From IMG/VR virus record IMGVR_UViG_3300033153_009093, positions 96,001 through 160,000 of that record: a stretch of 64,000 nucleotides of DNA; one strand, given 5' to 3'. The DNA is from a virus. A program made the translations under genes and the position numbers. The notes below the pieces were generated by a model that made no database searches, was not told the origin of the DNA, and saw only the letters and a list, made by a program, of their open reading frames with translations. Within the stretch, counting starts at the first letter, position 1. Every line of letters begins with the position of its first letter. Below, piece after piece: positions 745 through 39,023 of this stretch.

Positions 745-3700
745 ATGCTTTTTAAAACTAATTTATATAATAGAAATTATTACCCTATAAAGATTTTTTC
801 TATTAATGAAAATATTCTCAATGATGATAAATCTACTATTTCAAATGATTAGATTATAACCAGTTCTACTTTCAATAATGATGAAGGAAAATTAATTAAA
901 CCTTTTCAAACCACATCATAGATAACATCTGTGTCATTAAATGAAAATGTAAATAATTTTAAAGGATATATATATTTAGATTCTACTATATACACAGATT
1001 CTATTGATTATGGTACATTTGGAATATTATCAGGTTAGGAAGCAAATATAAAACATCACTTTGTTACTTTAAAAACTGGTAAGATTTTCAATAATAAAAC
1101 AGGGGGTGTATTTACAAAAGATGACGCTGATAGTTTATCGGAAGAATCTAATATCTCTTTAAAATTTAGTATGAAAGATATATCAGATTAGAATGAGATA
1201 TTAAATCATTTAGAAATGTCAGGATTTAGTGGATATGATATAGAAGATTATGATTTTTTTGGAGATGGAATAAATTCATTAACTATCAACTCTCCGCCTG
1301 ATGACAACTGCACTAATCAATTTGTTAGAGGAAGTGTAATAAATGATTAGGACACATTAACTGAATTTATTGAAAATAATAATGGCACATTGAAATTATA
1401 TAAAGAAAATGACAATATATAGTTTGACATGGAGCTACCCGGAAGATTATTATCTGATATATTTACTTCACTAGATACAAGTTATAAAAACATGATAACT
1501 TCAGAAGATTATGAAAAAAGTTCTAACTCTTCTATTGATTTGCCTATGTTACAATGGTCTATAGGCATGACAGTTATTTTGCAGTTAAAAAATAAAAATA
1601 ATAATACTCCTTATAAAATAAATTTAAAAATTGTTACGCCTTTAATATTCCTTTTATTATTACCTGAAAATGATATAATTGAAGCAAATAAAAGTGATAT
1701 TAAACCATTGCTTAATTTAATTAATAATCCTTCTGATCTTGATAAAAATACATTATTAGTTATACCAACAAAAACAAAATTATTAACTAATCCTTCCAGT
1801 TATTATTCATCTAATATAAAAGTATCACCCTTATCATTAAATACTTTATCGTTTGATACTAATGTAAATAAAGATACTTTTTTTACTATTAATAATGTTC
1901 AATAGAAAGCATCAGATTATTATACTGATAATGACTTAATAACTTTTTCGTCCGAATCGTTTCCGATAAAAAGAATTATACCATCCAGTGCAAATAAATT
2001 GATAAATAATAATTTTGACATATTTATAGATACTACTGGAATAACAGAAAGTTATATCAATACTCTAATTATTAATTATTCTTATGATGGTACAACTTAT
2101 GATATTGAAACTGATATTGAAATAATTCCTACTCTAAATGAAAATGAACCAGAAATAATATATTTACCAAATTCTATACTTGTTGAAAATTCTCATAAAC
2201 ATAAAGTAATACAAAAAGATTTATATAGTAGCAAATTTATTGACTGTATTCATTTTTCAACATTAGGAGAGGATAAACTTAATTTTCAATTAAAAAATAT
2301 AGGCGAAGCGAATGCGATAATTGAAAATGTCGAAATAGAAAATGCCTATAAATAGTTAGACGATTTAGCTAATATAGAAAATAAAACATCTAAGGATTTA
2401 GAAAATATCGAATTACTTACAGAATGTACTAATCATCACATTAGTGCTATGAAATATGTGAATAATTCTTTAACTGATATAGAATTAGAAAATTTAATTG
2501 AAAGATCTTCTATTAAAAAATATATAAATTTTACATTATCAAACATTAATCAATCTTCATATAATGCATATGGGACATCTAATTTTAAAATATTTTTTAA
2601 TATAAATAGATTTAAAACGGATATAAATTATTTAAATGGTATACCTTTAATATTTAAAATAATTTATAGAAAAAAAGATTCACCAATTAAATATACTAAA
2701 TATATATTCAATAAATCTGCTTTTAATTTAAAATTTGTAGTCGGTAAAATGGAATTATTGTATAATAATGAAGTGGAAGATATAAAATATATTAGACCTT
2801 CATCAAGAAATACTTTATTTGTTGATTTATATAGAAATATTAAATTTGACAATATTTAGAATTCTATGAGTAAATTATTATCGACCGGAGTTTCTATAAA
2901 AGATTGTAAAATATTAAATATAAATAATATTAATAATATATCGACTAATGAATATTTTATAGATCGTTCACAATTTCCATTAAGTGTATCTTCATTAAAT
3001 AATATAAATATTAATACGTTATCATTTGATTTAAATTTACAGAATGAAAAATTTTATAAATTTAAATTAAGAATATATACATCTTATGAATATATTCCTT
3101 TCATTGATATCCCTTTAAATGTAATAGCAACAAATGTGGATGTTGAAAGTATAATAAAATTTGATTCTAATGATTTTTATGTAAAAAATAATAAATATTT
3201 TTTATCATTAATAAAATTACAAACAAAAAATAGAAAATTATCTATAGTTAATACTTCTAATATAGATATTATGATATTAGATATAGACATTTACACCATT
3301 TCTGATCATTTTGGAAATGATAATTTTGATATTACATTAAATAATAGTTTTAATTTTCCGTTCAAAATGACTAATAAGAATTCTTTAAAATTAGATATTG
3401 ATTTTATTGGTAAAGATTTTGGACACTATAACAACTTTATAATATTAAAAACAAATTTAGGAGATATATATTTAAGCATTTCTTCTTTCGTAAATACAAA
3501 GTATAAAGATGTATATGTATTAATGGAAAATAGAAAGGGTACAAAATTTACATCAACATTAACTGGCAGTGATGTAGATTATATTAAGTTAATAAACTTC
3601 GGAGATGATAAATGTTTTACTGAAATAACTAAATTAGGAGGATAGAATTTAAATAATTTTAAAATATCCGAAAATGCAAAACTATTACCGAATACTACCA

Positions 3701-4620
3701 ATTATATAGAAAATGTATTTACTCCTACATCAACGGGTAAAAAAATAAGTTAGGCTGATTTTAAATTAAATGATATGCTAGAAACTTATAAATTATTAAT
3801 AGACGAAGAGACTTACATAGCTAAATTACAAAATAGTCATATAATTGCTGAAATGATAGGAACCGCATTAAGTGAAACGGCAGTGCCAGTATTTAGTAAA
3901 AGTATTATAGATTTTGGATATATCTCTACTGATAATAAAAATAGATTAACTAGAGTAGATACCTTTGATATTGAAAATTATGGAATAACTCCTTTTTTAA
4001 TAACAAAGATATCAAATGTAAATTCTAAATCTCCTTTTAAAATATCTTTACTAAATGAAAGTTATCCTATAAAGGTAAATAAGAAAATATCAATTCCAAT
4101 ATATATTGATAATACTTTATTAGATGACAATAATAAAATATATTATGATATATTTAAATTTGAATTGCAAGATTTAAAAACAAAAAATGTTTTTAGTAAT
4201 GATATTATTGTTAAATTAGAACTTACTGAAGATGATAAAAAATATATATCATTAAATTCAGAACTAATAGAATTTGGATATTGTGAAATAAATAATTTTA
4301 AATCTGATTCCGTATCCATTAAAAATTTTTCAACAGATAAGTTATCATTAGATATATCTTATAGTGGCGATATAGAATTACAAACATTGAAAGAATTCGC
4401 TATCAATTTATAGCCTAATCAAACCTTCGATTTGCCTATTTATTTCTATCCTCATGGAATTGATAATTTTGAAGGTATAATACAATTAAAATTTGATGAC
4501 GATTATATTAAAAATATAAACCTTTTTGGGTATGGTGTAGATTTTCAGTTACCTTTGATAAAAATCGAAAATGAATTATTAAAGTATACTAACAATATTC
4601 AACAATATTTAAATAAATAA
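745..4620 (+). CDS. Large (1291 aa) probable virion protein with ASH/Ig-like beta-sandwich domains in the C-terminal half; 12 in-frame TAG
   Basis: Track ORFs 1429, 1999, 2449, 2866, 3775 and 4432 are all in one frame, separated only by TAG (850, 919, 1036, 1189, 1348, 1420, 1903, 2353, 2857, 3643, 3751, 4411). ATG at 745, TAA at 4618. The C-terminus FGYCEINN..SIKN..L*PNQTFDLPIYFYP..G.IQL...L.GYG resembles ASH/choice-of-anchor-D domains. Confidence 0.8.
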
Positions 4621-4664
4621 TATTTTACGGAATCGGTTATTTATCGCCTATTCCGTAAAATATT
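4619..4664. terminator. Bidirectional terminator-like inverted repeat between convergent genes
   Basis: 15-bp arms AATATTTTACGGAAT (4619-4633) / ATTCCGTAAAATATT (4650-4664). Confidence 0.7.
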
Positions 4665-5061
4665 ATAATCCAAATTCCTATAATATTTTATATAAGTTCA
4701 AAGGTTTCTTAACAGGGTAGTATACATTATCAAAATATACCACTAAACTAGAAATGTTATTCAATATTTGCTCAGACACTTCATCATACTTAACATATAC
4801 CATTAATGAATATTCTGTTCCTAATTTAGTATCATTTTCTTGCACAAATAACTTATTATAAGTATATATACATTTCATGCTATCTATATGAATATAGTCG
4901 TCCTGTGATATTGTAGTCATATCAACTGCGCTGTCATCAAAGGGGTTATTGACATTATTATAATTTGGCAAACATAAATCGCACATCGGATTATCAATCA
5001 TATTTGCTATTAAGTCAAACGCTTTTGATTGTATTGCCACTTTTAATTTCGAATATTCCAT
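4663..5061 (-). CDS. Hypothetical protein (1 in-frame TAG near the C-terminus)
   Basis: Track ORF 4678..5061 ends in TAG; read-through adds *EFGL then TAA at 4663-4665, next to the terminator. Confidence 0.65.
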
Positions 5062-7664
5062 TATTCCACCATAACAACATCGTCTAAGGTAACATTAAAT
5101 ATATAATCACTGTTATATGATATATATGAATATTTTAAATTAATATCATATTCATATATATGATTATACTTTCTATAATTTATTAACATTTGGACATAAC
5201 CTTCAGATGATATTTGATAAATTGTTGAGTCGCTTAATAAATCTTTATTTAATATAACAGGATTATTATTATTAGTATTAAATGATAATTCATTTACAGA
5301 TAGATTAATAAATTTATTATCATCAATATTATATAAAGTAATTAAATCATTATAATTATTTATCGAATTTATAAAATAATCAGAAAATGTATAATCATTT
5401 TCATCTGAATATAAACTATAATATGCATACTAATCTATTCCTATTACTTTATTAAATATAATAAATTTATTATCTGTATCCATGATATCATCATATTTAA
5501 AAAATGTTACAAGAAATGTTCCGGTCGTATCTGTTATATTTACTTTGTAAATATCTTCCCCTATTAATACTGACATCACATCTTCATATTCCGCAACATC
5601 TGTATTATCCATATCATAAGATTTAATAATATTAACGTCTGTTAAAATAAAATCTTGTAAATTTTCATAATTAGTTGTATCTATAGTTAAAATATCTTTA
5701 ACATAAGAAAAGGTATAATCGATTACTATAGGATCTTTATATATTTCAGTTAACTGTAATTGTTTTATTTCATTATATAAATGATAAATCAAATCATAAT
5801 TCAATTTATCATTTATATAATATTTATTAGATAATAGATAATAGTAATCAAATGAAATTGTTTGAATATAATCGAAATATAAAAATTTATACTTATAAAA
5901 GCTTTCATCCAATACCGTATTATTTCTAATAAAATGATTATCTAAAATATCTAATGCATCATTTTCATTATCAATCGCTATAATAGATAGCATATTATGA
6001 GGTAATATATTTATATCATCATTTATTAGTATAACATTATCTATTCCATTAGTATGTATATAATAAGATAATGAGTATTCTTCGCTTTTTATAAAGTCGT
6101 TATAGATTACATTTGCAGTATCAAATGTTTTATTAAATTTATACAAGTTATCAAAATCCTAAGATAAATTATATATATAATTATGCAATTTATTATAGTC
6201 CTACTATTCATCCATATAATCATTTACTACAAAATCAATTTCATAATGATCTACATCCAAAGAATATGAGTAATATAATTCATCATTATTTATAGGTATC
6301 AGTCCACCTATAGCAACTTTATATTGTCGTAAATAAAATGTTTCGTAGTTTATATTATCAGACACATATAAAACTATCGGCAAATTTGTAGTAGTGTCAA
6401 ATCCTTGGATATCTATAAATTCCGCTGTCTCTATACTTCCAATATTTGAATCTACAAAATCACCATGAATATCCTAAAATTCTATTTGCTTTGTTAAATA
6501 ATTTCTATACTTTTTAATACTATTATAGCTACTTATAAATTCATCATAATCTTCATCTAATATAACTGTAGAATCATTATTGTAAGCTGTTTTTATATAG
6601 TTATATAAATAATTATTATATGATTTAAATTCTATATTGACTATCTCTTCTTGTTTATATAACTTTAATTGATTTGATGTTATCGAATTACTTGGTACCT
6701 AATCTGATAAAGTGCTTTCCTCAATATCATTAAATGTAAATTTTAAATCCTATCTAACAAATGGATGCGGATAATTATCCACATATTCACTATGTCCATT
6801 TTCTGTTACTTTTATACTATAAGGATATTTATCTGCGCTAGTTACAATATATGAATATTGCTCAAAACTAAATATTGCCGATGGAATGTAACTTTTAACA
6901 TCATTTAAAATATCATATAATGTATTTTTTAATTTATAATTATCTTGGCTTCCGTAAATATATACATACTTTTCATATCCATTAAAATTTATTTTAAAAG
7001 TAAATCCATTATAGATAACTTTATATGGTAAATAATTTGAATATATATATAATTCTTTGTATGATAACGAATTTTGCAATTGTTCAAATTCCGATTCATT
7101 TAATCCTTCAGTTTTTATTAATACTAAATCAGGATATTCTATATTTGATTTAGGATAATATACTGTTGTAGGTGTCTCTATTTTCTTTTCAACTATATTA
7201 AATAAATAATCATCAATGGGATCTATTTCTATTCTATTATACGAAATAGATTTTATCGATGATAAGTAACCGGAGTCCTTTTCATTCTTTATAATATTAT
7301 CTACAAATATACCCTTAGTATCAATATCATTTGAATAGGTCTAAATAAATTTTATATTATTAGGATACTTTATAGATGTTATTATAAATATTTCACAAGC
7401 ATTGAATTTTGATAATATCATCTAATGAATAAGCTATAATTTTTCTACATTAGATAAATTGGCATCAATTTTTACATCATCAATTTTATCATATAGCCCA
7501 TATACATATTTTATTATTGTTGAGCTTTTATTTTCTGAATACTTATGATATAGATATGTTGAAAAAATATAATCCATTTTTTCATTAACGGCATATTGTT
7601 GCATACCTATCGTATCGCTGAATATGTATTCTATATTTAGATTATTAGAATTAAATCCTAACAT
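5061..7664 (-). CDS. Large (867 aa) probable virion/baseplate-region protein; 10 in-frame TAG including a TAG-TAG pair
   Basis: Track ORFs 7434..7664, 6750..7079 and 5430..6146 share one frame with only TAG between them. The final TAA overlaps the next ATG (TAATG at 5061-5063). Confidence 0.8.
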
Positions 7665-12713: not shown

Positions 12714-12787
12714 TGGACTCGGTTAAGAGAATCGAACTCCTATACACAGATTTAGAGTCTGTTATCTTGCCATTAGATCAAACCGAG
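12714..12787 (-). tRNA. tRNA with anticodon CUA (reads UAG); inferred tRNA-Trp(CUA)
   Basis: CTCGGTT TG ATCT AATGGCA AGAT A ACAGA CT-CTA-AA TCTGT GTAT AGGAG TTCGATT CTCTT AACCGAG T CCA. All four stems pair, with a GG D-loop, TTCGA T-loop and encoded CCA. The amino-acid identity is inferred. Confidence 0.95.
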
Positions 12788-20202: not shown

Positions 20203-21103
20203 TACTTTACCTTTTTAATAAACTTTTTATTTTATCTAATTGTTTTTGTTTATCTTTAATCTAATATTTCTCAAAGATATGTAATAACTTATACCCTTTT
20301 TCTTTACATATATCAGTTTTCATTTGATGATATTCATCAGCGGTATAATTTTTCTTATATTTCTTTTTTATCATCTCATCAGAATGCCAATAACTGCCAT
20401 TAAATTCAATCGCAAAACTCTTTGAGGGTATTACTATATCCAGTTCATAAGGCTTGATTATAGACCTATTGGACTGTTCATAATCAATATTTAAAGAGTC
20501 AAGAAAAGAACATATTTCTTTTTCCGGTTTTGAAACTTGATTTGAGCATTTTGGACAACTTCTTCCGCTTAAATGACTATTTGGTGTTTGTTTAAATATA
20601 CCATGCTTAGGGCAAATTATTTTTATTTTAACCAGACTACCTTTATATTTTATTAATGAGTAGTCGTATTTATTATTATGTAATTTATTTGATTTATTAA
20701 TAAAAGTATCATCTGTTATAGTTCGTCTATTACATTTTGGACAACCTGAGCCATATAAATGAGAATTTGCTTCTTGCTAAAATATACCATGAACTTTACA
20801 AATAATTTTAATCTTTTTATGAATGGTTATATAATTAACTAACTTATAATTATATTTCTAACAATGTACTTTAATTGCTTTTTCAATAAATTCTTCTGTA
20901 GTTAATTTTTGAAAACCTGAACACTTTAGACAACCTTGTCCGCGTAAGTGTTTATTAGGAGTTTGATTAAATTCTCCATGAATAGGGCAAAGTATTTTAA
21001 CTTTTACATGAGCATTTACATACTTAACTAATTTATAATTATATTTCTAACCATGAACATTTATAGCTCGTTCTATAAATTTTTCAGTCGTTAATCTCTT
21101 CAT
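20202..21103 (-). CDS. DUF723-like Zn-repeat homing endonuclease with a C-terminal PD-(D/E)xK domain (about 300 aa); 4 in-frame TAG
   Basis: Three repeats H..KY.Y..V.Y....K.KI.C..HG.F.Q....H..G..C.KC, then ELDI, IEFNGSYWHS, LHIFEKY*IKD. TAG at 21047, 20858, 20777 and 20261; missed by the ORF track. Confidence 0.85.
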
Positions 21104-25954: not shown

Positions 25955-26023
25955 GTTTATTTACCTATAATAAAATTATATATAATTAATTTCATAATCT
26001 AATACATAAAAAGGATTATTATA

Positions 26024-26519: not shown

Positions 26520-27851
26520 ATGAAAAAGTGTATAAAAAATTATTCTATAAACATATCATCATCTAATTATAATAAATTAACCAATTATTTATTATACTAT
26601 AATAAGTGTAAAAATTTATTTTATAATAAATATTAGAATGATATCGGTACAATATATTTACCATATAAATATGAACTACGAGATACATTAGTTTCAAATA
26701 TAAAAAATAATGATTTGAATATTAATGAATTGGATTTATTAAAAAGCGTTCCCGCTAAATTATAGAAAAACGCATTAACTGAATCTATAACTAATTTAAA
26801 ATCTAATTAGTCTAATACAAAAAATAGAATTAGACAAAAAATAAAAAAGAACAAAAATTTTTCTGAAAAAGATACTCATTATTTATATTATGTACTTAAA
26901 TCAAATAACATATTACATAATATAAATAATGGAGATTTGAATATAACCTTAGAAAAATTTGATGTAAATTATAAAAAACTTAATTCATATTTATATCGAC
27001 AAATAAAAAAAGAAAAAAGAAAACCTTATTCTAAAAGTAATAGTTATATTATAGATAGTAGCTCGCAAATATTATACAAACAAATAGATAATAATTTAAT
27101 TTGTTTCCTATCAACATTAAAAAAACGAGAAAGGATTTTAATCCGTTTATCAAATAGTATAAAATATAAAGGCGATATTCGTATAGTATTAAAAAATAAT
27201 AAAATGGAACTACATAAAGTTATTAATATTAAACCTCAATTAAATAACAACAATTCTATTACTGGAATTTATATTGATTTTAATAATTTATTCACAACCC
27301 AAAATAATATTTATGGTAAAAATTTCGATAAACTATTAAAAAAATTTGCACATATTATTCACTGTAAATCAAATAAAAGGGAAATCCTTAAATCAATGAA
27401 TAATATACTAATACAAAAAAATAACTTAGGTACAAAAAAATAGCACAGTAAAAAAAGAAAATTTATTAATGAATTAAATTCCTTTATAAATTTGAATTTG
27501 AATTTATTAATTAAAGAAGAGCGGCCTAAAACTATTATTATAAAAAAAATAAATAAATATTTATTATATAATAATAGAGATAATTTATTTAATATTCCAA
27601 ACCATCATTTATAGATCTTAAATAATTATATAATAAATTACATTTATAAACGATTAGAATACAAAACACAATTAAATCAAATTAATATAATATTAGATAG
27701 TTCAAATTATACAATCAAAGTATGTAATAATTGTAAAAGTAGAAATACTATTATTACAAAAGGGTACTTTAAATGTAATAATTGCATGGTTAGTATAACT
27801 AAAACATCTAATACAATAAACAATATGATTGAGCATCACGGTGTTAATTAA
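26520..27851 (+). CDS. tnpB: TnpB-like (IS200/IS605 OrfB) protein with all three RuvC acidic residues apparently lost (443 aa); 5 in-frame TAG
   Basis: PAKL*KNALTESITNLKSN*SN, GDIRIVL, GIYIDFNNLF, NNLGTKK*, KRLEYK, CNNC..CNNC zinc finger. TAG at 26634, 26763, 26808, 27441 and 27612. Confidence 0.75.
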
Positions 27852-27961
27852 TGTTGTTTACCTAACTGGTTTTTGGAAAATGTATATTTATATACATTAC
27901 TGGTTTAACCTAACTTCACGGAAAGAGAAATTTAAATTCAGTTAATAGTAAATTCCCTTAT

Positions 27962-27992
27962 ACCGGAGAAGATTTTCTTCTCCGGTTTTTTT
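27962..27992 (+). terminator. Rho-independent terminator ending the tnpB-like transcript
   Basis: 11-bp stem ACCGGAGAAGA/TCTTCTCCGGT, TTT loop, followed by a T run. Confidence 0.85.
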
Positions 27993-28443
27993 ATAGATAC
28001 TTTTCAATTTTTTTATTAGTACTTTCATGTAAAATCATATCACTTTTATTTTTATTAAAATATGATTTTGGTGTGCCTTCAAATTTTCTCGACATTCCCC
28101 TCTAATCGGCAATCATTTGAAGTATGTATTTTTTTGGCATTTCAATAGGAATTATTTCATTTTTCCTTGTTACAGATACCTAGTAATTCTAATGATGTTT
28201 ATTTCTTTTTTGATGTTTATTCTACCCTTGTTGAAATAATTTATCGTTTCCATCAGATTTACAATAATTATTTAAGCTATCTTTCTTTTCAAAAAAGATA
28301 GCAGATGGTATAAATTCGGATGGTAAAAATTTTGATAAGTCATGAGTAATTGCATGATAATATAGTCCCATGTTGATACATTCTATTCCTACATTCTTTT
28401 TATGCTCAATAATATATTTAAAATATTTCTAATATTTATTCAT
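27991..28443 (-). CDS. DUF5662-like HD-related phage protein (150 aa) missed by the ORF track; 5 in-frame TAG, all at conserved Trp positions
   Basis: MNKY*KYF..HK..HDLSKF.PSEF..QG*NKHQKRNKHH*NY*V..EMP.KY..QMIAD*RG. TAG at 28429, 28222, 28189, 28180 and 28102. Confidence 0.85.
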
Positions 28444-36850: not shown

Positions 36851-38086
36851 TTATGTCAATGTTTCAAGAATATAATTTTTAAAATTATCAACAATTTGTT
36901 TTTTAACTGTAATATTCCATTCATTACAACAGCACGGAGCATAATCTTTATATCTCATATCATAGTCTTCAGATTCATGTAACGATTTTTGAAAATCGCA
37001 AATATCGTCCGCCTTCTTTACATGAATAAAACAAGGAGAAGTTGGACAATCGGATTTTATGTTTAAAGATTTTGTATATTTATAATATTTAGTTCTGCAT
37101 TCATATGGAAATGGGCCGTATAACCCAATAGCAGGCTTTTCAATACCTTCACGAAAATGAAATAGTGCAGTATCAACACTAATACAAAGAGTAGCATCAT
37201 ATGCATCAAGAAAAAATTCATCAAGATTTTTAGCTGCTATAATTTTAATTCTGTCATCTTTTAAATTATTAATATAATTTATATCTTCGATTCTTAAATT
37301 CAATTCATGGATATATATATTTACATCCTTATTATTAATACATTCAATTACGGATTCATAAATATCCTGAAATCTCATAGACCTAATTATAGCAGTAGAT
37401 CTAGGATTAATTAAAATACTAGGTTTATCAGAATCTATATTAGATTTATTATTATTTATTCTTGCTGTTTTTAATTGAGGTCTTCCCCATTCAAAGTCAA
37501 ACTCATCAATCCCGATAGTTTTATATTGTAATTCATACCAATTATCTTTACTATTTTCAATAACACCTTCATAATAAATAGTCTTATACCTACTATTTAC
37601 TCGTTTTTTTTCTAAAGAGTTATTACTTTTATATCTTACAATTGGCGAAAAATAAGATATAAATGTCACTGGTTCTCGATACCATTTAAACACGCTTCTA
37701 TATTTTTCTTGAGAAATGAATTTTAAATTTTTAGATTTCTTATTTAAAAATTGTACTATATTCATTGAAATAGAAGATAAAGCGATTAAATCGCCTATGC
37801 CTCCGGTTCTTAATATAATAGGAAATACCATTTTATTTTCTTTTGTAAAATCTAATTTATCTATAACATCGTCAATATTTTTTTCATATTTAACAATTTT
37901 ATTATAAATATTTTTTACTTGAGATGCTATCATATGTCTATCAGAAGTTCTAATAACTTCTATTAACCTTTCTTTAAATGTTAACCATATAGTATCAGCG
38001 AATAAATACATATGTTTAGGTTGTATTTTTATATCATTATCATTAATATTGATAGAAATACTTTTTTTAAATTCAACAATTTTCAT
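36851..38086 (-). CDS. Glycosyltransferase family 9-like (heptosyltransferase-like)
   Basis: RTGGIGDLI, ISVDTALFH, IGLYGP, C-terminal Cys cluster (CPTSPC). Confidence 0.7.
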   Translation of the reverse strand: MKIVEFKKSISININDNDIKIQPKHMYLFADTIWLTFKERLIEVIRTSDRHMIASQVKNIYNKIVKYEKNIDDVIDKLDFTKENKMVFPIILRTGGIGDLIALSSISMNIVQFLNKKSKNLKFISQEKYRSVFKWYREPVTFISYFSPIVRYKSNNSLEKKRVNSRYKTIYYEGVIENSKDNWYELQYKTIGIDEFDFEWGRPQLKTARINNNKSNIDSDKPSILINPRSTAIIRSMRFQDIYESVIECINNKDVNIYIHELNLRIEDINYINNLKDDRIKIIAAKNLDEFFLDAYDATLCISVDTALFHFREGIEKPAIGLYGPFPYECRTKYYKYTKSLNIKSDCPTSPCFIHVKKADDICDFQKSLHESEDYDMRYKDYAPCCCNEWNITVKKQIVDNFKNYILETLT

Positions 38087-39023
38087 TAATATTACACCTT
38101 ATATTATTTATTTTTTTTAATAGATAATTATAATTATCTATTATATTTTTTTCATTAACAATATTTAATGATATATTATCATCAAAATTATTAATATATA
38201 ACTTCATTATTTTTAATAGTTCTGTTATATTAAATTGCTTACAATTATAACAAGCATCTTCTATACAGTTTATATCATCAAAATTTATATTGAAGTATTT
38301 TATAAAATACTTCAATAAATTATTATACAAATGACATTCAGTACCAGTTTTATATTTAATGATATACTTTTTCATATTATCTATATCATCAAAATTAATA
38401 AAATTATTTAATGATTTTGACATTTTTTCTTTTTCATTGCTTCCATAAATAACATTATTAGAAATATTAATTTTTATATTTTTTATATTTAATTTTTTAT
38501 AAATATCTTTCATAATGTTAATATTTGATTTTTGATCATTTGCTAAAAAAACAGTTGTTATTTCATTATCATTATGATATAATAATACATCAAAAGTTTG
38601 TAAAACTGGATATAATAAAAATCCCAAAGATTTATTCTTACTATTTTTAAATGTAGGATTTTTTAATAATTTTGATGTATTTATTAACGGAAGATATTTA
38701 TATGTTAAAGAAGTATGATAATTATTAATGTTTTTATTATTTTGAAATATAAATAATAATTTATTAATATTATTATCAATGTTTTTATTATTATATATTA
38801 AATATGTTTTATATAATGAATAAATCTTTTTTGCTAGTAAAATAGAATTATTATTTATTTTATTAGCTGAAATATTAGATAATTCTGAATGAGTTTCAGC
38901 TAGTAAAATAAATATTTTATTAACATTTTTAAACATTATATTATCAAACATATTTAAAATTGTCATAACATGTCCAATATGTAAATTATTTCCCGTTGAT
39001 CTAATTCCAAAATATATATTCAT
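38073..39023 (-). CDS. trpS: Divergent tryptophanyl-tRNA synthetase-like protein (class Ic)
   Basis: GIRSTGNNLHIGH, YPVLQTFDVLLY, ANDQKSN, KMSKS, C-terminal C..CK; contains no TAG and no TGG. Confidence 0.8.
   Translation of the reverse strand: MNIYFGIRSTGNNLHIGHVMTILNMFDNIMFKNVNKIFILLAETHSELSNISANKINNNSILLAKKIYSLYKTYLIYNNKNIDNNINKLLFIFQNNKNINNYHTSLTYKYLPLINTSKLLKNPTFKNSKNKSLGFLLYPVLQTFDVLLYHNDNEITTVFLANDQKSNINIMKDIYKKLNIKNIKINISNNVIYGSNEKEKMSKSLNNFINFDDIDNMKKYIIKYKTGTECHLYNNLLKYFIKYFNINFDDINCIEDACYNCKQFNITELLKIMKLYINNFDDNISLNIVNEKNIIDNYNYLLKKINNIRCNINENC

Follow-up and report, generated by a model that had tools for sequence, protein, structure and literature searches.

The 64,000-nucleotide stretch of viral DNA analyzed here (positions 96,001 to 160,000 of IMG/VR record IMGVR_UViG_3300033153_009093; hereafter the window) carries a TnpB-like gene descended from an IS607-type TnpB, which has been domesticated and is nuclease-dead. 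Together with its relatives it makes up an independent clade of IS607-derived dead TnpBs in T4-like jumbo phages. Its translation is possible only with a code in which TAG stands for tryptophan, and the literature collection that was searched contained no paper describing dead TnpBs in such phages. The conversion of a selfish RNA-guided nuclease into a regulator was described recently for the TldR proteins, and the roles of most TldR clades are unknown according to the authors (Wiegand et al., 10.1101/2023.11.30.569447). A first-pass annotation, made from the letters of the window, had proposed the gene as a TldR-like candidate. By analogy, we give about an even chance to the locus working in the same manner, as a dead ribonucleoprotein that would bind DNA under RNA guidance without cutting it.

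A TnpB relative that has lost its RuvC active site

The sole Pfam match of the protein is to PF07282, the Cas12f1-like TNB zinc-finger domain, and lies below threshold (E 5e-5); PHROGs and NCBIfam gave no match, nor did tblastn against 50,697 GenBank phages. A word-indexed search returned three full-length relatives with 35-42% identity, and a profile built from these three and run against 1.84 billion representatives retrieved 5,700 proteins, 237 of them with E values below 1e-30. PDB chains matched by the family profile are those of Cas12f, TnpB, Fanzor and Cas12, and the profile aligns the (D/N)AD.NA motif of the family with the third RuvC motif of AsCas12f. An AlphaFold2 model computed from an 82-sequence alignment reached a mean predicted local distance difference test score (pLDDT) of 94.2 and a predicted template-modelling score of 0.86. 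Its best Foldseek matches are all Cas12f/TnpB complexes, with an E value of 1e-11 to AsCas12f, and ISFba1 and ISDra2 TnpB are matched as well. The protein is therefore predicted, from the profile-to-PDB comparison, the model and the structure search, to adopt the TnpB/Cas12f fold, sharing with TldRs both this fold and homology to TnpB; the TnpB-like label of the first-pass annotation is confirmed to that extent.

The catalytic columns were read from two family alignments, one of 131 representatives and one of 10 sequences. Glutamate occupies the RuvC-II column in 117 of the 131 representatives, and the majority have DKG(F/Y) and AD motifs; active relatives read IDKG(F/Y) at RuvC-I and (D/N)AD.NA at RuvC-III. 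At the positions expected for the D/E/D triad, the first-pass annotation had pointed to GIYIDF, IIIKKI and SITKTS. All three are present as given, but the aspartate of GIYIDF (D253) stands two columns away from the catalytic one, where the protein has Y251. We rejected D253 as a substitute catalytic aspartate since members of the dead clade differ at this position, with G in L004 and S or V in L005 (numbers of this form designate the loci compared). Since the aspartate column holds Y251, and D253 is both off-column and unconserved, all three catalytic residues are lost. The five proteins of the dead clade agree in this: each has tyrosine in the RuvC-I aspartate column, lysine or glutamine in the glutamate column, and threonine or alanine in the third. 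In the window protein the whole triad has been replaced, Y251 standing for the first D, K342 for the E and T429 for the second D, and the protein shares a deteriorated triad with TldRs, whereas the sister proteins keep the D/E/D of active IS607 and IS605 TnpBs. The claim that the protein is nuclease-dead thus survives, no intact catalytic residue being placed by either alignment, and so does the claim of a retained zinc finger, whose four cysteines (C402, C405, C419 and C422) are invariant across the alignments.

The family contains other departures from the canonical active site. A second monophyletic clade (SH-aLRT 100), unrelated to the first, also lacks all three RuvC residues (P0069, P0073, P0095, P0097, P0121, P0140 and P0145, with motifs xFGY, IP-KLP and SK) and is another candidate domestication. 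In P0022-P0025, P0035, P0063 and others, the first aspartate and the glutamate are kept and the third motif reads AN, SG, AH or TH in place of AD, which points either to partial inactivation being widespread or to a third residue that has changed place.

Single copy, fixed locus and purifying selection

The maximum-likelihood tree unites the five dead proteins in a single clade with SH-aLRT 100, and its sister group (support 99) consists of intact proteins. Three of these intact sisters, L003, L039 and L041, immediately follow a gene for a MerR/HTH resolvase, which is the serine-recombinase type of TnpA found in IS607 elements, and other intact relatives occur in several copies per contig, with differing flanks. 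The dead gene is single-copy in three complete phage genomes, namely that of the window and two relatives. The first-pass annotation had remarked that no TnpA is nearby, an observation that now extends to the complete 180-kb genome, in which no match to a serine-recombinase (PF00239) or Y1 (PF01797) TnpA was found anywhere; the two complete relatives, searched with PF00239, gave no match either.

The same synteny is seen in the window and in L034, L035, L036-38, L004, L005 and L008. Primase, an Mre11-like phosphoesterase and UvsX/RecA, all on the minus strand, are followed by a plus-strand pair and by a conserved minus-strand gene of ~330 aa. The pair consists of a beta-rich gene of ~170 aa and the TnpB-like gene, and in the window it is flanked by the UvsX-like recombinase block on one side and by a conserved 334-aa gene on the other. 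As in TldRs, then, there is no tnpA, there are no transposon ends, and a fixed partnership with non-transposon genes is kept in at least six phage lineages. Of the mobile-element character of active TnpBs nothing is seen, the gene being fixed at one locus, single-copy and devoid of a TnpA.

Closer TAG-recoded orthologues, split by gene callers, were recovered through a short-fragment search. L034 and L035 have full 443-codon frames with ~75% identity to the window protein, and full-length frames are retained in at least six lineages, at identities down to 37%. The ratio of nonsynonymous to synonymous substitution rates (dN/dS) is 0.12, 0.22 and 0.14 among the window, L034 and L035, and 0.14 between L001 and L006. 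This range among related phages, 0.12-0.22, shows no neutral decay, and the gene is under purifying selection as a domesticated single-copy phage gene. Single copy, fixed locus, missing TnpA and purifying selection together support the domestication that had been proposed. Within the dead clade, conservation is highest in the WED/REC half (0.45, versus 0.30-0.38 in the RuvC and TNB regions), while the active sister clade has the reverse (0.38 in the N-terminal half versus 0.45-0.52 in the RuvC/TNB half). Judged from these values, the dead clade has its constraint shifted toward the WED/REC half and away from the RuvC half.

Two of the loci differ in their setting. L008 (JAOZRH010000017.1, deposited as a Neomarinimicrobiota metagenome-assembled genome) has, at 1745-5639, a 165-aa gene, a 177-aa beta-rich gene, a TAG-split TnpB-like gene and a 325-aa gene; this is the phage synteny, so that in all likelihood a contig of phage origin was placed in a bacterial genome during binning. 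A near-duplicate of its TnpB-like C-terminal coding sequence lies ~200 nt downstream of the gene. In L001 (2086-14359), a non-recoded member of the dead clade, the gene stands among five large paralogous DUF723 proteins (498-756 aa), a context unlike that of the TAG-recoded phages, and the beta-rich upstream partner is absent.

TAG as a sense codon

The phage genome that contains the window is complete, with 180,374 bp and 24% guanine plus cytosine, and the phage is a T4-like, probably lytic member of a TAG-recoded jumbo-phage group. Under translation table 11 the TnpB-like gene falls into fragments; with TAG read through, it becomes the single frame of 443 codons with five TAGs that the first-pass annotation had described, closed by TAA. 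The TAGs are codons 39, 82, 97, 308 and 365 (at 26634, 26763, 26808, 27441 and 27612), and the gene has no TGG codon at all. In the alignment with standard-code relatives, TAG97 falls on an invariant tryptophan column and TAG82 on a nearly invariant one, and TAG39 and TAG365 fall on columns with tryptophan in several of these relatives.

Since most of the TAGs stand on columns with tryptophan in the family, TGG is missing, and the window encodes both a tRNA with anticodon CUA and a class-I synthetase of the Trp/Tyr type, TAG is a sense codon required for translating the gene, and most likely means tryptophan. The dependence of translation on this reassignment, which had been proposed for the gene, is therefore supported by three or four of its five TAGs. 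The window, L004 (6001-7422) and L005 (5986-7311) all have TAG at codons 39, 82 and 97, which are tryptophan columns of the family, so that the gene serves as an independent witness of TAG meaning tryptophan in this phage group. The L004 gene has one TGG, near its C-terminus.

The 3' region and its probable descent from omega RNA

Active relatives have a P1 hairpin (CGGTTG...CAACC) in the stretch made up of the gene's end and the bases after it; then comes AAGACTC, then a P2 whose 3' arm runs into the invariant GAGAGCGAA, and after these a third hairpin and a U-rich stretch. The RNA ends in ...CAG or ...CGG, and beyond this point, where the guide lies, the copies diverge. P1 and P2 of the active relatives show compensatory changes and covariation. 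Among the dead-clade loci, L004, L001 and L006 have P1, P2 and AAAGAG(CG)AAA in the order of the active relatives and fold accordingly. The order of motifs is the same in the window, in a more eroded form, GAGCGAA having become GAGAAA. When a covariance model built from active relatives only was run over 46 kb, its two best matches, in L006 (E 0.07) and L001 (E 0.67), coincided with the 3' ends where the RNA was expected. On this evidence the 3' region of the window probably descends from the omega RNA of the family.

The 139 nt of this region are 83-90% identical among the window, L034 and L035; in the same phages, identity is 61-72% at third codon positions and 72-84% in an intergenic control that bears a promoter. 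All 25 modelled pairs form in the three sequences, and six of them are compensatory (two in the hairpin and four in the terminator), a test which compares three sequences with a structure drawn from one of them and is supportive, not conclusive. The unpaired tail (27926-27962) has its best BLAST match among 12 loci at the same position of L004 (30/36 identical, E 7e-5). When viral contigs were scanned for the tail motif as a DNA pattern, the contig of L004 itself was the only one to match, and Rfam has no family for the 3' region of the window or for the omega RNAs of the active relatives.

Much of what the first-pass annotation had noticed in this region holds. The hairpin at 27879-27898 shows two compensatory changes in relatives, CCTAACT is indeed duplicated (27861-27867 and 27909-27915), and the strong terminator is there (27962-27986 plus a T run), the sole terminator-like site in 2.8 kb against 0.3 expected. 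The CCTAACT pair was considered as a target-site duplication and rejected, the second copy being the conserved one, in which P1 has its 3' arm and P2 begins. The CTTCAC likened to IS200/605 right ends is found at 27914-27919, but it is the 5' arm of a shrunken P2 from an IS607-type omega RNA and no IS200/605-type right end.

Where a guide could begin

The guide start suggested earlier, at 27920 (GGAAAGAGAAATTTAAATTC), does not hold. This stretch is the counterpart of the invariant scaffold motif GAGAGCGAA of the active relatives and, being nearly invariant among related phages, it is scaffold and not guide. Two other boundaries can be drawn by homology. A candidate boundary is the end of CAGTTAATAG (27948), which resembles the ...CAGTAACAG end of L009-type elements and would leave TAAATTCCCTTATA as a short guide. 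The alternative is the end of TTATACCGG (27966, CCGG), which resembles the ...TATCGG and ...GACCGG ends of the nearest active relatives and would leave no guide. The core of the candidate guide, AAATYCCCWT, is common to the window, L034, L035, L004, L001 and L006. Nothing equivalent exists in active scaffolds. The conservation of this core extends across phages whose proteins are just ~40-47% identical. The frequency of AAATYCCCWT in the two complete relatives is at chance level. Deriving a target-adjacent motif (TAM) from the flanks of L002, L010 and L011 gave an ambiguous result. The best matches of guide candidates in the phage genome, a 14-mer at window 1356-1369 (minus strand) and an 11-mer inside an open reading frame at genome position 71,920 (minus strand), are within chance expectation and were discarded.

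Proposed mode of action and alternatives

An ancestor of the T4-like TAG-recoded jumbo-phage group took up one TnpB copy with its omega-RNA gene. The captured copy went on to shed transposase and element ends as well as the complete RuvC triad, and has stayed single-copy at one locus, behind the small beta-rich gene. In the mode of action that we propose, the mRNA would extend to the terminator (27962-27993), and the protein would bind the omega-RNA-derived 3' part of its own transcript (~27865-27962). By analogy with TldR, this ribonucleoprotein would bind DNA sequence-specifically and not cleave it. The five TAGs would be translatable only after the phage tRNA(CUA) is charged, and the protein is therefore expected alongside other TAG-rich (late-class) genes. 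The weakest step is a short fixed guide, which would start near 27949 (TAAATTCCC...). An extended version of the proposal, in which a protein made only while tRNA(CUA) decodes TAG would use a hard-wired short guide (AAATYCCCWT...) aimed at a conserved host or phage site, either as a late switch or carried into the next cell, seems doubtful to us. Were it true, no TldR-type regulator would have been known before from anywhere but temperate phages and bacterial operons, and this one would be timed by a genetic-code switch.

Several observations weigh against a TldR-like role. The gene is not full-length everywhere: in L036-38 the orthologue stops after codon 239, leaving a 239-aa WED/REC-only open reading frame followed by a decayed but recognisable zinc-finger/C-terminal remnant (L036 6001-6953, L037 1801-2835, L038 1664-2700). 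L036 also lacks ~75 nt of the RNA tail, of which L037 and L038 keep a degenerate version. The gene is therefore dispensable in at least one lineage. Covariance models from eight (R1) and eleven (R2) active relatives miss the 3' regions of the window and of L004, the window even in an unfiltered search (R2 did match 20843-20951 on the minus strand with E 0.011, but this place falls within a coding gene and the match was regarded as spurious). Shuffled sequences fold as well as the window region does (z = +0.65). P1 has just 4 bp there, P2 is reduced to a minimum and does not vary, and no equivalent is seen of the P3 hairpin that active relatives have; the L005/L008 branch is without P2, the GAGAAA motif and AAATTCCC. 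An nhmmer search with the dead-clade tail found no second RNA copy in the phage genome. As for the guide, a CCGG-type scaffold end as in L002, L003 and L040 leaves only the 3' arm of the terminator at the guide position. The first-pass annotation had advised searching for targets of the candidate guide, and tail and guide candidates from 27915-27966, compared with the 180-kb phage genome, gave counts equal to those of shuffles, with no match beyond chance.

These last points lead to the possibility that the gene encodes a guide-less ribonucleoprotein or RNA-binding protein, which would act on its own 3' untranslated region (in autoregulation, RNA stabilisation or a structural role) and would have lost base-paired DNA targeting. 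This is the main rival reading, and we consider it possible, if somewhat unlikely. It would explain a scaffold that may end at TTATACCGG by homology with the nearest active relatives, with only the 3' arm of the terminator beyond, and terminator-arm bases that differ between close relatives solely via compensatory substitutions. It is also consistent with the lack of a DNA target in the phage genome, the deletion of the RuvC lid region in L005, and the precedent of one published TldR homologue without specific guide RNA association. However, the WED/REC half of TnpB holds the guide-target heteroduplex, and it is precisely this half that is best conserved. Moreover, the clade-specific AAATYCCCWT is unpaired, absent from active scaffolds and located where a guide would start.

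Alternatively, the gene could be a functionless, decaying relic of an old IS607 insertion, its frame kept by chance or through selection on an overlapping transcript or terminator only. The loss of every catalytic residue, the erosion of the RNA helices, the truncated genes of L036-38 with their decayed C-terminal remnants and the tail deletion in L036 would all fit decay. We nevertheless regard it as quite improbable in view of full-length frames in at least six lineages down to 37% identity, dN/dS values of 0.12-0.22, invariant zinc-finger cysteines, an AlphaFold2 confidence of 94 and compensatory changes in the RNA hairpin. Finally, although rearranged RuvC sites are known in the TnpB/Fanzor superfamily and many family members vary the third motif (AN, SG, AH) while retaining D and E, a nuclease with relocated catalytic residues is extremely unlikely here, with canonical positions that are non-acidic in five out of five clade members, an unconserved D253 and RuvC regions that are the least constrained of the protein.

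The TldR-like reading and the guide-less one would each be informative. If a fixed guide and its target exist, they would show what the phage must silence, and the protein would be a compact, naturally dead DNA binder; if there is no guide, the locus would show an omega RNA kept for another purpose. The family also offers natural intermediates, from intact IS607 relatives through full-length dead copies and a lid-deleted copy to a WED/REC-only truncation.

Comparison with known systems

TldRs with 9-16-nt guides and phage-borne TldRs have been published (Wiegand et al., 10.1101/2023.11.30.569447), the described types being associated with fliC_P in temperate Enterobacter phages and with oppF in Enterococcus (Wiegand et al., 10.1101/2023.11.30.569447; Xiao et al., 10.64898/2026.09.22.753285). 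Like them, the window gene derives from TnpB through decay of the RuvC triad, is carried by a phage without tnpA or transposon ends, and has a fixed link to non-transposon genes; an omega-RNA-derived element would lie directly 3' of it, possibly with a short conserved guide-like stretch. Unlike them, it belongs to an independent clade, sister to serine-recombinase (IS607) TnpBs, in phage genomes without a serine recombinase; it resides in a T4-like jumbo phage, beside replication and recombination genes, and its translation needs TAG as tryptophan. Its RNA scaffold is so strongly eroded that covariance models of active relatives miss it, no guide-target pair, TAM or promoter target was identified in the phage genome, and the guide region runs into the terminator hairpin. 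What the locus adds to the known cases is an independent, IS607-derived domestication, the setting of a large T4-like phage beside replication genes, and the dependence on stop-codon reassignment.

With the IS607 TnpBs (L003, L039, L041, L002) the protein shares 31-42% full-length identity and the order of domains, and the 3' RNA shares the succession of P1 hairpin, AAGACT, P2, GAGCGAA and tail. Active IS607 TnpBs differ in that they keep D/E/D and either adjoin a MerR/HTH-resolvase TnpA or are multicopy with divergent flanks, and in having a P3 hairpin as well as a defined right end, beyond which variable guide DNA begins. An impaired RuvC in a TnpB/Cas12 fold is likewise found in Cas12k of type V-K CRISPR-associated transposons, in Cas12m and in the dCas12f that works with sigma-E (PMC13472631), several of which are among the Foldseek matches. 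These proteins act by RNA-guided DNA binding. They differ from the window protein in using CRISPR arrays and CRISPR RNA, with TnsC/TniQ or sigma-E as partners; at the window locus there is no array, repeat or such partner.

Feature coordinates and neighbouring genes

Table 1. Features of the TnpB-like locus and related genes, in window coordinates.
Feature	Position	Strand	Remarks
tRNA, anticodon CUA	12714-12787		
Upstream beta-rich gene, 164 aa	26024..26518	+	stop 1 nt before the TnpB-like ATG
TnpB-like gene	26520..27851	+	443 codons + TAA; 5 in-frame TAGs; nuclease-dead
RuvC-I remnant GIYIDF	27264..27281	+	aa 249-254; catalytic Asp column = Y251 (27270-27272)
RuvC-II remnant IIIKKI	27534..27551	+	aa 339-344; catalytic Glu column = K342
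TNB zinc finger CxxC-x13-CxxC	27723..27785	+	C402, C405, C419, C422; PF07282
RuvC-III remnant SITKTSN	27792..27812	+	SITKTS aa 425-430; catalytic Asp column = T429
Conserved noncoding 3' region	27852..27990	+	putative omega-RNA-derived element
P1	GGTT 27868-27871 / AACC 27907-27910	+	encloses hairpin 27879-27898
P2	CTTC 27914-27917 / G27921 + AAG 27923-27925	+	
GAGCGAA-equivalent GAAAGAGAAA	27921-27930	+	
Unpaired conserved tail	27926-27962	+	
Candidate short guide TAAATTCCCTTATA	27949..27962	+	if the scaffold ends at CAGTTAATAG (27948)
Intrinsic terminator	27962..27993	+	11-bp stem, loop, T run; stem 27962-27986
DUF5662 gene	27991-28443	-	Pfam E 5e-26; 5 TAGs, no TGG; tail to tail with TnpB-like gene, shared terminator
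Class-I Trp/Tyr-type synthetase	38073-39023		

Downstream, the DUF5662 gene that faces the TnpB-like gene is not at this site in L034, L035 and L004, and is therefore a recent insertion.

The coupling of the TnpB-like gene to the upstream gene, noted in the first-pass annotation, is borne out by the 1-nt gap and by the pairing kept in L034, L035, L036, L004, L005 and L008, all of which have the upstream orthologue in the same position. The dN/dS of the upstream gene is 0.13-0.22. Its 164-aa protein has no match in Pfam, PHROGs or NCBIfam, its AlphaFold2 model is of low confidence (pLDDT 53) and too poor for a fold search, and its neighbours in a structure atlas are only unnamed phage proteins. 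Ahead of the pair, the divergent intergenic region 25955-26023 has a block conserved in L034 and L035 (TTACCTATAAT...TTATATATAATTAATTTC), which probably contains the promoter or promoters of the plus-strand pair and of a minus-strand 173-aa gene.

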